This document shows, in pieces, positions 1 through 5,460 of a stretch of 5,460 nucleotides of DNA. Origin of the DNA: Naegleria gruberi (taxonomy: Eukaryota); the NCBI GenBank assembly GCA_000004985.1, contig GG739161.1. The stretch is one strand, 5' to 3'. The stretch's first letter is position 1, and each line of letters starts with the position of its first letter. The notes under the pieces were generated by a model. It was not told the origin of the DNA. It made no database searches and saw only the letters and a program-made list of their open reading frames with translations. The translations under genes and the position numbers were made by a program.

Positions 1-1320
1 ATTCGTGGTTATTTTGATAATTGTTCCTTGATTTCAAAACAATTCTTTAATGTGATCAAGGAGCGTTCAAAACTTTTTATTAAATTTAAAAAGAAATTTA
101 CAGAGAAAAGAATTAAATTATTCATGAAGAGTCAATTTATGAATAGTATTGTTAATGTTAAATTTTCTAAAAGGTTGTTTGACTCTATAGAAAAACCCAA
201 ATTCATATGTGAAATGAAACAATTAACATCACTTATTATTAGTGGAAATCAAATTGGTGATAAAGAAGCCAAATTTATAAGTGAAATGAAACAGTTAACA
301 TCACTTGATATTTATAACAATCGTATTGGTGATGAAGGTGTCAAGTCAATAAGTGAAATGAAACAATTAGTATCACTTAATATTTATAACAATCGAATTG
401 GTGATGAAGGAGTTAAATCAATAATAGAAATGAAACAATTAACATCACTTGATATTGGTGGAAATCGAATTGGTGATGAAGGAGTCAAATTTATAAGTGA
501 AATGAAACAATTAACATCACTTAATATTTCTGAAAATCAAATTGGTGATAAAGAAGCCACATTTATAAGTGAAATGAAACAATTAACGTCGCTTAATATT
601 TATAACAATCGAATTGGTGATGAAGGAGTCAAATCAATAATAGAAATGAAACAATTAAAATCACTTGATATTGGTAGAAATCAAATTAGTGTAGAAGGAG
701 CTAAATTTATAAGTGAAATGAAACAATTAGTATCACTTAATATTTATAACAATCGAATTGATGAAGGTGTCAAGTCAATAAGCGAAATGAAACAATTAAC
801 ATCACTTAATATTGCTGAAAATCGAATTGGTGATAAAGAAGCCAAATTTATAAGTGAAATGAAACAATTAACATCACTTGATATTTATAACAATCGTATT
901 GGTGATGAAGGTGCCATATTTATAAGCAAAATGAAACAGTTAACATCACTTAATATTTATAACAATCGAATTGGTGATGAAGGAGTCAAATCAATAATTG
1001 AAATGAAACGATTAACATCACTTGATATTGGTAGAAATCGAATTGGTGATGAAGGAGTCAAATTTATAAGTGAAATGAAACAATTAGCATCACTTGATAT
1101 TTCTGAAAATCGAATTGGTGATGAAGGTGTCAAGTCAATAAGCGAAATGAAACAGTTAACATCACTTAATATTTCTGAAAATCGAATTGGTGATGAAGGA
1201 GCCAAGTCAATAAGTGAAATGAAACGATTAAAATCACTTGATATTGGTGGAAATCAAATTGGTGATGAAGGAGTAAAATTCATAAGTGAAATGAAACAAT
1301 TAGCATCACTTAATAAGTAG
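1..1320 (+). CDS. RNI-like leucine-rich repeat protein, about 15.5 tandem 24-aa repeats. The frame is open to the left window edge, so the gene is probably 5'-partial. The first in-frame ATG is at 124, and the track start at 28 is a TTG.
   Basis: Seen in sequence: 430-codon ORF ending at TAG 1318-1320. The repeat unit is EMKQLTSL(D/N)I.xN(R/Q)IGDEG(V/A)K(S/F)IS, which matches the ribonuclease-inhibitor-type LRR pattern (L..L.L..N.IGD.G...L). Frame 1 runs without a stop from nt 1 to 28, so the coding region likely starts upstream of the window, or at ATG 124. Confidence 0.8.
   Translation: MRGYFDNCSLISKQFFNVIKERSKLFIKFKKKFTEKRIKLFMKSQFMNSIVNVKFSKRLFDSIEKPKFICEMKQLTSLIISGNQIGDKEAKFISEMKQLTSLDIYNNRIGDEGVKSISEMKQLVSLNIYNNRIGDEGVKSIIEMKQLTSLDIGGNRIGDEGVKFISEMKQLTSLNISENQIGDKEATFISEMKQLTSLNIYNNRIGDEGVKSIIEMKQLKSLDIGRNQISVEGAKFISEMKQLVSLNIYNNRIDEGVKSISEMKQLTSLNIAENRIGDKEAKFISEMKQLTSLDIYNNRIGDEGAIFISKMKQLTSLNIYNNRIGDEGVKSIIEMKRLTSLDIGRNRIGDEGVKFISEMKQLASLDISENRIGDEGVKSISEMKQLTSLNISENRIGDEGAKSISEMKRLKSLDIGGNQIGDEGVKFISEMKQLASLNK
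211..1317 (+). repeat. Tandem array of 72-bp coding repeats (about 15.5 units, each encoding one 24-aa LRR). Unit 7 is 69 bp after an in-frame 3-bp loss. Units 1-3 are near-duplicated as units 9-11 at a 573-bp offset.
   Basis: The motif 'gaaatgaaaca' recurs at 211, 283, 355, 427 and so on, which is a 72-bp period. Units 3 (427-498) and 11 (1000-1071) differ at about 3 of 72 positions. In the unit starting at 715, RIGDEG becomes RIDEG. Confidence 0.9.
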
Positions 1321-1717
1321 TATTATACAGTAGAAGTATGAAAGTAAGTTACCTTGTATATTTTTAAATCAGTTAGTGCACCTAACAAAAAAGATTGAAA
1401 GCATACCCTTATTGAGCTGCTCTAATTGCTCTTCTGAATTTTCCCCAAAAAGATATTTTGGATTTGGATGACTTTTGGTGAGATTTTCCAATAAAAAAGA
1501 AAGGGTGTAGAATAGTGTAGAACTATAATAAATAATTTGCTGGTCAATTAACAGTTTACAATGGTGTGTTGGTGTTGAAAATGCTATGAAGAGAAGTACC
1601 AGGTAGCCAACCTAGATAAGTCTCCACTTGAAAACATGATGCACTTTCTAATCACCAAATTACATAATTAGTAAACCTAATACGGATGCAAAAAATCAAG
1701 TTTCACACAACAAAAAA

Positions 1718-2680
1718 ATGTTTCAACTGAATACACACATTATTCCTTTTGCTTGCAGCCTAATTCCATTGACTGTTGGTATTTATTTTGCTAGAAAGTA
1801 TTTTAACGGGCCAACTGTCAGTGAAAAATTACTGAAATCATCAGATTTGACAGGTAAGATTGTTATTGTCACTGGAGCAAGTGCTGGTGGAATAGGATTT
1901 GAAACTAGCAAAGTATTGCACAGATTGGGAGCAACAGTTGTGTTGGCTGTCAGAAATCAACTGGCTGGTGACAAGGCTAAAGAATTAATCGAAAAGGAAA
2001 ATGGAAATTCTGACAAATTAATTGTAATGCTCATCGACTTAGCAGATTTAGCTTCTGTTAAGAAATTTACAGAACTTTTCATGTCAAAATTCAATCAGCT
2101 TGACATTTTAATTAACAATGCAGGAATCATGTCAATTTACGGAACTACCAAACAAGGAGTGGAACTTTTATTTGGAAGCAACCATTTGGGCCACTTTCTT
2201 CTCACACACTTACTTTTGAATTTGCTTAAAAAATCCAAAGATGGTCGAATTATTAATTTGACATCTGTCTCTGCAAATTCAAATTTGGAATTTATTGAAA
2301 AATACGCAAATTTTGAATTGGAGTCATTGATTGGAGATTGTAAGACATCACATCCCAATAATTTTGCACTTTACAGGAGATCCAAGTTGGCCAATATTTT
2401 ATTTAGCAAAAAATTAAGCAGAGAACTAGCTCTAGATTCTTCCAATTTAGTTCAATGTTATTCTAATCATCCAGGAACTGTAAAGTCAAATATGGGAAAG
2501 CACATGCCTCTATTATTCAGATTATGCACCAAAATCTTCCTCTTTCCAATACTTGCCTTAGTTTTGAAGAGTACTTATCAAGGAGCTCAAACAACAATTC
2601 ATTTGGCTCTTTCGAATAAGAAAGATTTGAAATCGGGTAACTATTATGCTGATTGTCAGGAAAAGGTTGGATCCATATGA
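1718..2680 (+). CDS. Classical short-chain dehydrogenase/reductase, retinol dehydrogenase 11/12/13/14-like, with an N-terminal membrane anchor. The annotated stop is probably premature, and the homologous C-terminus continues in the +1 frame to TAA at 2784-2786.
   Basis: Seen in sequence: ATG at 1718 in the context aaaaaaATG. N-terminal hydrophobic segment. Gly-rich NAD(P)-binding motif VIVTGASAGGIG. NNAG motif (ILINNAGIM). Catalytic Ser in LTSVSANS. YxxxK as YRRSK. C-terminal GAQTTIHLALS and SGNYYADC resemble the RDH11-14 subfamily. Frame 0 from 2682 encodes DSIELQDKLWKNSFELCKEY, which resembles the RDH C-terminal ..RLW..S.ELL motif. Confidence 0.85.
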   Translation: MFQLNTHIIPFACSLIPLTVGIYFARKYFNGPTVSEKLLKSSDLTGKIVIVTGASAGGIGFETSKVLHRLGATVVLAVRNQLAGDKAKELIEKENGNSDKLIVMLIDLADLASVKKFTELFMSKFNQLDILINNAGIMSIYGTTKQGVELLFGSNHLGHFLLTHLLLNLLKKSKDGRIINLTSVSANSNLEFIEKYANFELESLIGDCKTSHPNNFALYRRSKLANILFSKKLSRELALDSSNLVQCYSNHPGTVKSNMGKHMPLLFRLCTKIFLFPILALVLKSTYQGAQTTIHLALSNKKDLKSGNYYADCQEKVGSI

Positions 2681-2942
2681 AGATTCCATTGAATTGCAAG
2701 ATAAATTATGGAAAAACAGTTTCGAATTATGCAAAGAATATTTAAACGAAACCAAACTTTCTTCAAACCAGAATCCAATCCAATAAAAATCCTCACTGAT
2801 GAAGAAATGCTTTGATTGTTTTAGAATCAAAACATTTAATACATAAATGAAGCAAATCCACAGTGAGGAATGAGAAAAGTTCGTAATAAGTTTCATAAGT
2901 TTCTGAATAGATGCGGTTAACAAACATCAAAGAAGTAAATAA

Positions 2943-3860
2943 ATGTCATTTGTCTCTGTTTCTAATCAAATATTTAAAAAAATGTGGACAACAAGACGTA
3001 GAACAATACTTTCCTTGATTTTACTGACAATATCTAGTTGTCTCGTGTATATATTTCTCTTCATTCTCTATCAACCAAATATTGATGAAAAATTAACTTT
3101 TCTTCATCCAATCATAATCCGAAACAAATATTCGAAAGCTAAAATTGCAATCGTTTCATTCCATACGAAAAGCTTTCAAGAAATTGGACGAATGACAAGT
3201 CTGAACAAGATTTTCTACTCTCTAAAGCATAATTATGATTTTATCCTATTCAATCAACCTTTCTATAAATCATGGTTTGTGAAACCTGCTTGGAATAAGA
3301 TTCCACTTATCAAAAGTCAATTGAGTAGTTATGATTGGATTATTTGGATTGATTCTGATGCACTTGTGTTATTGCATCAAGTTGATTTGGATCAAATTAT
3401 TGAGGAATCGTTGAAACGAGATCCGAATAAGAATGGAGAAATTAACCTAATCATTTCATATGATAGAAATGGATTGAATAGTGGAATAATGGCTATTAGA
3501 AATTGTAAATGGTCACATCAGATATTGAATAATGTACTCAGTTGGAAATACTTTCTCTATTCCATGCATTGGTATGCAGAACAAACTCCACTCGTTATGG
3601 AACTCGAACATGGAAAATCTCAGAATGTTCGAGTTGCCTTGAAATCATTCCTCAATTCGTACATGTATGATTATAAGGAGGGTAAATCATTTATATTTCA
3701 CTTGGCTGGATGTAATAAGTATGAGGGAAATTTGTGTGCCTCAATTATGAGAAACTTTTATGAAAATTGGAGGGAAAGGAATGTCACCACAGTGGAGGAT
3801 AGAGAATTATTGAGAAAGACTGAAATTATTTATGATGGAGTGAGTGGAGGTGGATCATAA
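2943..3860 (+). CDS. Type-II membrane glycosyltransferase, GT34-like (Mnn10/Mnn11/Gma12/xyloglucan-xylosyltransferase family; alpha-1,2-galactosyl or alpha-1,6-mannosyl transferase type).
   Basis: Seen in sequence: ATG at 2943. A short cytosolic N-terminus (KKMWTTRRR) is followed by one hydrophobic span (ILSLILLTISSCLVYIFLFILY). The segment KPAWNKIPLIKSQLSSYDWIIWIDSDALVL matches the GT34 signature W.K(I/L)P.......E..W(I/V)WW.D.DA, which includes the DxD motif. Stop TAA at 3858-3860. Confidence 0.7.
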   Translation: MSFVSVSNQIFKKMWTTRRRTILSLILLTISSCLVYIFLFILYQPNIDEKLTFLHPIIIRNKYSKAKIAIVSFHTKSFQEIGRMTSLNKIFYSLKHNYDFILFNQPFYKSWFVKPAWNKIPLIKSQLSSYDWIIWIDSDALVLLHQVDLDQIIEESLKRDPNKNGEINLIISYDRNGLNSGIMAIRNCKWSHQILNNVLSWKYFLYSMHWYAEQTPLVMELEHGKSQNVRVALKSFLNSYMYDYKEGKSFIFHLAGCNKYEGNLCASIMRNFYENWRERNVTTVEDRELLRKTEIIYDGVSGGGS

Positions 3861-4080
3861 TGTGATTGCTAAATAAACCAATTCAAAAGAATATTTGAAA
3901 ATTGTGAAATCATGTATGTGGAATTTTGGAGATGCTCTTTCTATACTATTTACCGACTCTAATTTGGAGTCATTACCTTTACCTGATGTTCTTCTTTCCC
4001 TTCCATTAACTTGGCATCTTGCCAAATATCTCGATAACGAACTATATAAGAGTGATGATATTTTGAAAGAATATGTAAAA

Positions 4081-4151
4081 TCGGGTGTGGTATAGTGGTA
4101 GCATTCCAGACTGTCACTCTGGCGACCCGGGTTCAATTCCCGGCACTCGAG
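4081..4151 (+). tRNA. tRNA-Asp (anticodon GTC), eukaryotic type, no encoded CCA.
   Basis: Hand-folded cloverleaf. The acceptor stem pairs tcgggtg (4081-4087) with cactcga (4144-4150), giving 7 bp with one G-U. The D-arm is gtat/agtggta/gcat. The anticodon stem pairs ccaga (4106-4110) with tctgg (4118-4122), and the loop is ctGTCac with the anticodon at 4113-4115. The T-arm is ccggg ttcaatt cccgg (4127-4143). The discriminator is g4151. The A-box is gtatagtggta and the B-box is ggttcaattcc. The overall sequence is close to metazoan and fungal tRNA-Asp. Confidence 0.9.
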
Positions 4152-4157
4152 ATTAAA

Positions 4158-4161
4158 TTTT
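4158..4161 (+). terminator. RNA polymerase III terminator (T4 run) 7 nt downstream of tRNA-Asp.
   Basis: TTTT at 4158-4161 lies immediately 3' of the tRNA. By established knowledge, runs of four or more T terminate Pol III. Confidence 0.5.
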
Positions 4162-4568
4162 AATATTTAATAGTTTCAAAATATCGATAAAAGCATATAG
4201 TCTACCTAATTCTCGATTTTCAAATGATCATCTCTTAAAACCATAAAGAAGATAACCTCAGATTATACTGACCTATTTTCTTCAAAAATCACAAGCAGAT
4301 GCTCAACTGAACTTGGAAAAGTTGAGCTCAAAAAACCAATGAATCTTGTGCTTTACCTTACATTTTCCTTAATTAATGCAGGACTGCATTTGATATTTGA
4401 TGGATTCAATTTATCCTCCATCTTGTTCATGTTTTGGGTCCCTCATCATGCTTACTATTATTTAATTTAATATCTTCGTCATCATACATGTTCGGAATTT
4501 AAAAAAAACTCAATTTTACTCTGATTGAGATTCTCTATGTGCAATGATTTTTCAATTAATAAAAAGAG

Positions 4569-4758
4569 TTGGGTGGCTCCTAATCTGACGGTTTGTGCAA
4601 TGTCTGATTGAAACCAAATCAAAGTGAGCAATTAAGCTCAAACCCTGATCCCTACAAAAAATTGAGTTAATAGTAATGCAACCCGTGGGCTGCTTTCAGC
4701 TATTAAACTGAAAAGAACAGATACTACACTCGATCAAAGCCAATTGGCCGAGAAAGAT
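4569..4758 (-). ncRNA. U2 spliceosomal snRNA gene. The 5' end is at 4758. The 3' end is approximate and lies near the ...GGAGCCACCC(AAC) terminus.
   Basis: The reverse complement of 4758 downward reads AUCUUUCUCGGCCAAUUGGCUUUGAUCGAGUGUAGUAUCUGUUCUUUUCAGUUUAAUAGCUGAAAGCAGCC...CAAUUUUUUGUAGGGAUCAGGGUUUGAGCUUAAUUGCUC...GGAGCCACCC. This contains the near-invariant U2 5' region and the branch-point-binding GUAGUA (human: AUCGCUUCUCGGCCUUUUGGCUAAGAUCAAGUGUAGUAUCUGUUCUUAUCAGUUUAAUAUCUGAUA). It contains the Sm site AAUUUUUUG. It contains a stem-loop III-like GAGCuuaauuGCUC. Its 3' terminus is similar to human ...GGUGCACCC. Confidence 0.85.
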
Positions 4759-4781
4759 GGTTTTGAGTATTACATAAGGAT

Positions 4782-4795
4782 CATTGTATTTATTC
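4782..4795 (-). promoter_or_regulatory. TATA-like element (GAATAAATACAATG on the minus strand), about 30 bp upstream of the U2 +1.
   Basis: TAAATA lies at about -34 to -29 relative to the inferred U2 start at 4758. By established knowledge, plant and many protist or fungal U-snRNA genes carry a TATA at about -30 plus an upstream element. No clear upstream element was recognised here. Confidence 0.3.
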
Positions 4796-4891
4796 GGTTT
4801 GTTGTCGAGTGAGGATTTGCAAAATGTTTGTGGTATTTTATTAAATAATAATGCCTAGTACAATTATTGAACATGTAGTGAATCTTAATTA

Positions 4892-5383
4892 CTAATTCTT
4901 TACTTTGATTTCATCCTTCCACCAAGCACCATCCATATCTTCCACTGTCTTGCTGTATTGATTGAATTTCCATCCATCCTGAGAGGTTTCTTCCTCTTTG
5001 AGGAATCCCCACATTTTAACTCGTTTCCAATGAAAGAATAAAGTCCAAACCTCACATTCGTCCACAATTTCCTCATTATTTTCATCCAATTCCTTAATTT
5101 CCTTATTCTCATTCGGTTGAGGTTTCAGCAAGACTCGGTGATAATCCTTCCCACTGAAATAATTAACACTTCCTGCACGAAACTCCTTCTCACTCATCTT
5201 TTTATTCGAATGCGAAACTTTAATTTCCCTATACGAACCACTTAATATCAAACTAATGCCAAACTTCCACGGATGATCGTGATACCCTCTATCAGGATCT
5301 GAATGCACAAATCGATGTAACACTAAACCAGGTCCATTTTCAAAAGATAATAAATTGATCTTTCCAAAATTAGAACGTTTGTT
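4892..5383 (-). CDS. Cupin-type thiol dioxygenase-like protein (cysteine dioxygenase / cysteamine dioxygenase / plant cysteine oxidase superfamily). This is the 3' exon only. There is no ATG, and the N-terminal 70-100 aa are expected in an upstream exon, possibly beyond the right window edge.
   Basis: Seen in sequence: the frame is open from 5383 down to TAA at 4892-4894. The track 'M' at 5323 is actually GTG. The translation ...KINLLSFENGPGLVLHRFVHSDPDRGYHDHPWKFGISLILSGSYREIKV...GSVNYFSGKDYHRVLL aligns with the CDO core ([36 protein letters not shown]...NDSIGLHRVEN). It also aligns with the ADO/PCO HDHPgM..SK.LyG motif. That gives a 3-His metal triad HxH ... H. The C-terminal 80 aa (acidic and Trp-rich) are not CDO-like. 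A candidate 3' splice acceptor, ttctaattttggaaAG|ATC, sits at about 5360. Confidence 0.45.
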   Translation of the reverse strand, partial: NKRSNFGKINLLSFENGPGLVLHRFVHSDPDRGYHDHPWKFGISLILSGSYREIKVSHSNKKMSEKEFRAGSVNYFSGKDYHRVLLKPQPNENKEIKELDENNEEIVDECEVWTLFFHWKRVKMWGFLKEEETSQDGWKFNQYSKTVEDMDGAWWKDEIKVKN

Positions 5384-5460
5384 TTATCGTTCAATGAGTG
5401 AAAGATTTGTTTCCTTGGCAAGTGTTTGGATAACGTATGGAGAAGTTGTTCATTTTTTTG

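Follow-up and report, generated by a model that had tools for sequence, protein, structure and literature searches.

An unannotated, 5'-truncated leucine-rich repeat gene of Naegleria gruberi with a 72-bp tandem array and a probable place in an F-box/GALA-type LRR subfamily

The window analysed here comprises an entire orphan scaffold of 5,460 bp from Naegleria gruberi NEG-M, the genome of which was assembled from Sanger reads (PMC9928731 Table 1). Its first 1,320 nucleotides (1–1320, plus strand, frame 1) represent an unannotated gene of an F-box/LRR family, the open reading frame of which comprises 439 codons plus stop, contains no stop before 1318 and is truncated at its 5' end. An earlier note on this DNA had missed that the frame is already open at base 1, where the scaffold ends and the gene is cut off. 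Downstream of this gene, the ORF at 1718–2680 matches EFC35543.1 (NAEGRDRAFT_76802) exactly and the ORF of a GT34 protein (2943–3860, 305 aa) contains EFC35544.1 (NAEGRDRAFT_76803) at 100 % identity. Together with the genes for tRNA-Asp and full-length U2 snRNA also present on the scaffold, orthologues of the neighbouring protein genes in N. fowleri and N. lovaniensis (52–55 % identity) directly identify it as nuclear DNA of an amoeba. A twin of the GT34 protein with 99 % identity (219/222) is encoded on a scaffold of 362,555 bp, and no such twin of the neighbouring SDR was detected among the annotated proteins; the scaffold may represent a haplotig or a recent segmental duplicate. In comparison with its orthologues of 352 aa, the SDR carries a frameshift, so that the sequence quality or the functional state of the scaffold is not beyond doubt. 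An LRR protein encoded on the 362-kb scaffold of the GT34 twin (P0002) was considered as an allele of the window gene and rejected, since it shares only 45 % identity and lies 28 gene accessions away.

The only strong tandem array reported by TRF extends from 198 to 1315 and comprises 15.6 copies of a 72-bp unit (82 % matches, score 1403), each of which encodes one 24-residue LRR (EMKQLTSLxIxxNRIGDEGVKxIS). The 72-bp periodicity for which the earlier note had proposed a repeat-finder search is therefore present. The array is preceded by a non-repeat N-terminal part (1–210) that, according to paralogue alignment, consists of the last third of an F-box-like domain (NCSLISKQFFNVIKE) and a linker. 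The anatomy of the array can be read directly from the positions of an ATGAAAC anchor, which recurs at a spacing of 72 bp from 214 to 1291 with a single exception of 69 bp (718 to 787). Cut at the E-M-K codons, the array divides into 15 full units from 211 and a partial unit of 33 bp (1288–1320), in agreement with the 15.5 units counted previously. The exceptional unit (715–783, 69 bp) has lost one codon (ATTGGTGATGAA to ATTGATGAA), so that RIGDEG becomes RIDEG and the encoded repeat is reduced to 23 residues, exactly as had been noted for unit 7 from 715. At the 3' end, the frame reads ...TCACTTAATAAGTAG at the position where other units have ...TCACTTAATATT, and the TAG stop (1318–1320) is located mid-unit inside the terminal partial unit (EMKQLASLNK plus stop); array and ORF do thus end together within a unit, as described before. 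Pairwise DNA identities between units range from 75 to 97 % (mean 84.7 %), and calling the units near-identical was overstated in view of these values and of the 82 % matches reported by TRF.

Similarity is lowest between direct neighbours in the array (lag-1 mean identity 82.5 %), and the highest mean identity of all lags was found at lag 8 (90.1 %). Permutation of the unit order yielded p = 0.002 for lag 8, which becomes a modest p = 0.03 once the choice of lag is corrected for by using the maximum over lags. With units numbered from 0 at position 211, the best block of four units pairs units 0–3 with units 8–11 (93.1 %, p = 0.01) and begins one unit 5' of the copy perceived earlier, in which units 1–3 were held to recur almost base-for-base as units 9–11. 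The copy itself and its offset of eight units minus 3 bp are confirmed (856 − 283 = 573 = 8 × 72 − 3), but identity amounts to only 93.1 % (201/216, 15 mismatches); along the whole overlap of the offset-573 diagonal it is 89.3 %. Clustering revealed five unit types (A, B1, B2, C and D) in the order A-B1-B2-C / A-B2-C-B2 / A-B1-B2-C / D-D-C-(partial). The offset-573 diagonal, the lag-8 mean and the clustering delimit a first block of eight units (211–783, 573 bp, types A-B1-B2-C-A-B2-C-B2) and a second block of seven full units plus the 33-bp partial unit (784–1320, types A-B1-B2-C-D-D-C-(partial)), the first four units of which are a 93 % copy of 211–498. The higher-order copy is real but modest, and its simplest reading is the duplication of an 8-unit, 573-bp block, with the eighth unit of the second copy ending at the stop codon.

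No protein at least 90 % identical to the ORF was found in a collection of 5.8 billion proteins, hence the gene is unannotated; the best match was N. gruberi NAEGRDRAFT_66053 (P0001, 71 %). This protein and NAEGRDRAFT_64117 (P0004) answer affirmatively whether related LRR genes exist in N. gruberi, as the earlier note had suggested to check; a further relative (P0012) is metagenomic and encoded on contig L001. All three resemble the window gene in the N-terminal linker (73–79 % for P0001 and P0004), repeat consensus, codons and 50 %-identity cluster neighbourhood. They differ in possessing 4–7 repeats instead of 15.5, and in units that, unlike those of the window gene, are no more alike within a gene than between genes. 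In an exhaustive search among 1.84 billion representatives, the 70 non-repeat N-terminal residues of the window matched two 50 %-identity clusters, which indicates that the specific subfamily is small. Protein-based and DNA-pattern scans of JGI metagenome contigs detected no related DNA, nor did a scan of viral contigs, and no paper describing a Naegleria family of such F-box/LRR genes was found in the literature; related DNA was obtained from metagenome contig L001 only.

Residues 5–69 of the window align with residues 59–122 of the N. gruberi paralogues P0004 (73 %) and P0001 (79 %). Together with the frame being open at base 1, this alignment places about 55–58 N-terminal residues beyond the end of the scaffold, a part that reads ...IFSDDVCFEIISMLDDSWFILNNCSLISKQFFNVIKE... 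in the paralogues. A profile of 16 N-termini of the family was compared with PDB, and 11 out of 11 matches were F-box proteins (FBXO42, KDM2A/B, beta-TrCP, FBXO44, COI1, FBXL2, GID2 and Cdc4), all aligned at the same profile positions; each match is weak alone, the best E-value being only 0.031. The Pfam models F-box-like/F-box were matched by 13 of the 16 N-terminal segments (best 6.5e-10). They were matched neither by the nearest paralogues P0001, P0004 and P0012 as whole proteins nor by the isolated N-terminal segment of P0001. From these profile and Pfam matches we conclude that the family probably combines an F-box with LRRs. Of the F-box (about 45 residues), only the last ~15–20 residues are located inside the window; because this is merely the last third, we infer from the family that a complete F-box would precede the LRRs of this gene.

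The repeats are matched by Pfam LRR_6 (1.2e-73), and L5-x-x-L8-x-I10-x-x-N13-x-I15, the signature of the LRR superfamily, is present in 15/15 units. With 14 units of 24 codons and one of 23, their length is that of the GALA-LRR and GL-LRR types (24 residues). The motif of these types is likewise present, as in the Kajava numbering Asn occupies position 3 in 15/15, Ile position 5 in 15/15, Gly position 6 in 13/14 and Asp position 7 in 14/15 units; further repeat positions are I13, L19, L22 and I24. The GALA-LRRs, a subfamily of the CC-LRRs, are defined by 24 residues, N3, I-G-D at positions 5–7, Gly/Ala at 9, Ala at 10 and no conserved Leu at 16 (Kajava et al. 2008, PMC2244805). The repeats studied here have Gly (12/15) or Glu (3/15) at position 9, Val (9/15) or Ala (6/15) at position 10 as compared to Ala in GALA, and an invariant Met at position 16, which is not conserved in GALA and is occupied by Leu in GL-LRR. 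At these three positions they are intermediate between the GALA and the GL consensus.

The best PDB match by sequence was the Ralstonia GALA protein 9j7j (1.5e-42). The best Foldseek match of the AlphaFold2 (AF2) model was the LRR domain of RipG4/GALA4 in the same entry (E 1.4e-19, rmsd 2.6 Å over 343 columns, TM 0.79). The model (mean pLDDT 82, LRR part mostly >90) displays 16 strand/helix turns. Its solenoid is maintained through the 23-residue repeat by means of a shorter helix (256–260; pLDDT of this block 88–92), and its last element is a strand at 436–438. The earlier designation of the repeats as RNI-like is appropriate in the broad sense of the fold, since ribonuclease inhibitor is likewise an alpha/beta horseshoe (global TM 0.74–0.75), but does not extend to its class: ribonuclease inhibitor consists of 28–29-residue repeats alternating between types A and B, as opposed to units of 24 residues here, and identity is only 17 %. 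Motif and model together suggest a GALA-type CC-LRR as the better fit, and the repeat class is corrected from RNI-like to this type.

The GALA/RipG type III effectors of Ralstonia solanacearum share with the window gene the 24-residue repeat, N3, I-G-D at positions 5–7, G9 and the apolar positions 13, 19, 22 and 24, and have an F-box before the LRRs as seen in members of the Naegleria family. They are secreted bacterial effectors as opposed to the product of a eukaryotic nuclear gene, and overall identity is only 26 %. Amoebal GALA-like F-box-LRR genes bear on the origin of the bacterial GALA effectors, a matter that Kajava et al. (2008, PMC2244805) had brought up and that exceeds the scope of a single window. 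Eukaryotic FBXL proteins (Skp2, FBXL2, COI1/TIR1), which act as substrate receptors of SCF complexes, have the same domain order of an F-box followed by an LRR solenoid, and the F-boxes of FBXO42, KDM2A/B, beta-TrCP, COI1, FBXL2 and Cdc4 are among those matched by the N-terminal profile of the family. In contrast, the canonical CC-LRRs of FBXL proteins have 26 residues with a conserved Cys rather than 24 residues without Cys, and the DNA sequences of Skp2-like repeats have diverged much further from each other than those of the window units.

Several codons are fixed or nearly fixed at given positions of the unit, namely TTA for Leu5, CTT for Leu8 and ATA for Ile23 (15/15 each) as well as TCA for Ser7 (14/15). 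Given the frequencies of these codons in the two neighbouring genes (TTA 0.22, CTT 0.16, ATA 0.20, TCA 0.30), so uniform a choice would arise by chance with a probability of 1e-8 to 1e-12 per position, and of about 1e-10 to 1e-12 for the codons fixed in all units. The units therefore directly display a shared descent at the DNA level, beyond a mere protein consensus. At the protein level, the nearest neighbour of a unit is found inside the same gene for 15/15 window units, as compared to 2/7 for P0001, 2/5 for P0004 and 1/4 for P0012; this pattern, a direct observation, points to an expansion of the array specifically in the window gene. The units of the L001 gene share on average 78.6 % (up to 89 %) DNA identity with the window units, which among themselves share 84.7 %; outside the repeats, the two genes match at 83.4 %. 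The L001 units L1 and L2 are the closest outside relatives of types A and C (89 % and 86 %, respectively). Since types A and C can be recognised in the L001 gene, the unit types appear to be older than the split of the two genes and not to have been homogenised away.

This bears on the two processes offered earlier, recent expansion or concerted evolution. Were the similarity of the units maintained chiefly by gene conversion or unequal crossing-over rather than by recent block duplication, units would be closer within the gene than between genes (84.7 % versus 78.6 % DNA identity; 15/15 nearest neighbours) and hardly any synonymous variation would be seen in the 5' half of each unit (framework pS 0.065), both of which were observed. 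We nevertheless regard this explanation as rather unlikely, because five distinct unit types persist in a non-random order, types A and C predate the gene split (L001 relatives at 89 % and 86 %) and similarity is lowest at lag 1 (82.5 %). Moreover, the 5' half is equally invariant in L001 and its invariance hence is a property of the family, not of the window array. Of the earlier suggestion, expansion is thus retained, as one specific to this gene, concerted evolution as the main force is not, and the comparison of units favours expansion by multi-unit block duplication over strong ongoing concerted evolution. Under such an expansion, the array would have been enlarged within the gene as units recombined out of register or slipped against each other, with the near-invariant first 24–30 bp of each unit possibly providing the homology for out-of-register exchange. 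Growth probably included duplication of the 8-unit (573-bp) block, the copies of which would since have diverged to about 89–93 % identity.

The end of the array had been described as abrupt, which might be read as a sign of truncation. The window gene could accordingly be a decaying or truncated copy, i.e. a pseudogene or the null allele of an alternative haplotype, in which a once longer array was recently shortened to the present mid-unit stop by a nonsense mutation or a truncation. The stop at a place where the consensus continues (AATATT versus AATAAGTAG), the missing annotation of the gene, the frameshift in the neighbouring SDR and the possible haplotig nature of the scaffold are compatible with decay, which we consider improbable on the following grounds. 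No degraded unit was detected downstream of the stop (local alignment score 16 versus a shuffle mean of 16.2, p = 0.53), and none of 136 GT..AG combinations near the 3' end adds LRR-like sequence as a spliced extension. Six paralogues likewise terminate at most a few residues past their last strand, namely P0101 (...LTYLY-stop), P0057 and P0127 (...LTKLVL-stop), P0005 (...LRKLVLFA-stop), P0013 and P0004. Given these ends and the last beta-strand of the AF2 model, which is supplied by the terminal partial unit, the final strand-only half-repeat is best regarded as the normal C-terminus of the family and not as evidence of truncation. Decay is further opposed by an open frame of 439 codons in DNA of 24–31 % GC and by a framework pN/pS of 0.37.

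The earlier note had also warned of collapse or miscounting of units. The longest exact internal repeat of the array is only 53 bp, and 99 % of its 50-mers and all of its 75-mers and 100-mers are unique. Sanger reads exceed such a repeat in length by an order of magnitude. With every 75-mer unique in a Sanger-sequenced genome, collapse or miscounting is unlikely, the warning loses its basis, and the assembled unit count, as far as the sequence tells, gives little reason for doubt. The caveats proper to this assembly are the scaffold ending inside the gene, its possible nature as a haplotig and the frameshifted SDR. That the array is an assembly artefact, with a wrong (collapsed or expanded) unit count or a mis-joined scaffold and hence a different true repeat number, is very improbable: a 5.46-kb orphan scaffold ending inside a gene, the 99 %-identical GT34 twin on the 362,555-bp scaffold and an adjacent SDR frameshift that could reflect low-coverage sequence lend it some colour, but the exact repeats of at most 53 bp, the unique 75-mers and 100-mers, the far longer reads of the Sanger-sequenced NEG-M genome and a frame intact over all 15.5 units, including the in-frame 3-bp deletion, speak against it. 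The array as assembled can be regarded as trustworthy.

Taken together, with a probability of roughly 0.7 the ORF represents the LRR part of a genuine, unannotated nuclear gene which belongs to a Naegleria subfamily combining an F-box with GALA-type LRRs, the array of which has grown within the gene and the product of which would by analogy act as an SCF receptor. In terms of annotation, the gene is a new, partial and unusually long (15.5-repeat) member of this small subfamily and otherwise an ordinary repeat-encoded LRR gene; the practical value of adding this so far unannotated member is small. In the predicted product, each 72-bp unit adds a single beta-strand/helix turn to a curved solenoid. 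By analogy with FBXL and GALA proteins, the most likely role of this product is that of a substrate receptor of an SCF ubiquitin ligase; it would contact Skp1 through its F-box and capture the substrate with its LRR solenoid. A farther-reading proposal, which we deem quite doubtful, is that the gene belongs to a fast-evolving, Naegleria-specific repertoire of F-box-LRR recognition proteins, with repeat number and exposed strand residues varying by haplotype or strain, serving in intracellular surveillance as adaptors through which proteins of bacteria or viruses are marked for ubiquitination; in that case, the orphan scaffold would result from structural divergence of the locus between the two haplotypes.

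Among the units, pN/pS amounts to 2.9 for the six codons that encode the x residues of LxxLxLxxNx (unit codons 6, 7, 9, 11, 12 and 14), as compared to 0.35 outside the x codons and 0.37 for the framework codons (pS 0.065, pN 0.024), values that stem from non-independent pairs of units of one gene and are thus descriptive only. Such a pattern, in which the scaffold stays constant and the exposed residues of the strand are diversified, is usual for LRRs. The framework codons are conserved, the x residues that the LxxLxLxxN strand exposes vary between units, and since these residues differ, each unit would contribute a different patch of a putative binding surface. The gene may in this respect serve as a small, clean example of how LRR proteins enlarge their binding surface, in that multi-unit blocks duplicate, framework codons stay fixed and exposed strand residues diverge. 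The helix side varies as well, at unit codons 18–22 and 24.

The window (1-5460) corresponds to a complete orphan scaffold of 5,460 bp from the N. gruberi NEG-M assembly. Its GT34 protein has a twin (EFC41548.1, 219/222 residues, 99 % identity) encoded on a scaffold of 362,555 bp; no close twin of the SDR protein was detected among the annotated proteins. The 5,460-bp scaffold may represent a haplotig or a segmental duplicate.

The GT34 ORF (2943-3860) comprises 305 aa, while the annotated model covers only 222 aa. The additional N-terminal part of the ORF includes a hydrophobic stretch (ILSLILLTISSCLVYIFLFILY) resembling a type II membrane anchor. Since the orthologue of N. lovaniensis comprises 303 aa, comparison suggests the 222-aa model of N. 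gruberi to be N-terminally truncated. The neighbouring SDR gene (EFC35543.1, 1718-2680, annotated length 320 aa) appears to be frameshifted near 2660-2680. The conserved C-terminus of the SDR continues out of frame (DPYEDSIELQDKLWKNSFELCKEYL, within 2646-2786), and this part aligns with residues 327-351 of the 352-aa orthologue from N. fowleri (E = 3e-11). Either a real null allele or a sequencing error would underlie this putative frameshift.

A close relative of the LRR gene was identified at 2086-2877 of metagenome contig L001 (ENA, ERZ929261), which presumably originates from another Naegleria-like amoeba. The F-box-like N-terminus of this relative is complete, and its array comprises only four 72-bp units, the codons of which are those of the window array. 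It is flanked by genes for a gelsolin-like and an amino-acid-transporter-like protein.

On the minus strand of the window, a 143-codon ORF (4892-5323; …HRFVHSDPDRGYHDHPWKFG…) yielded no sequence matches in Pfam and PDB, and its exact sequence was absent from the protein collection. It may be partial or contain an intron, because the frame is interrupted upstream. Two small RNA genes were detected, located about 420 bp apart: one for tRNA-Asp (GTC; 4081-4151, plus strand) and a full-length gene for the U2 spliceosomal snRNA (4568-4760, minus strand), which matches positions 1-192 of Rfam model RF00004 with 119.5 bits.
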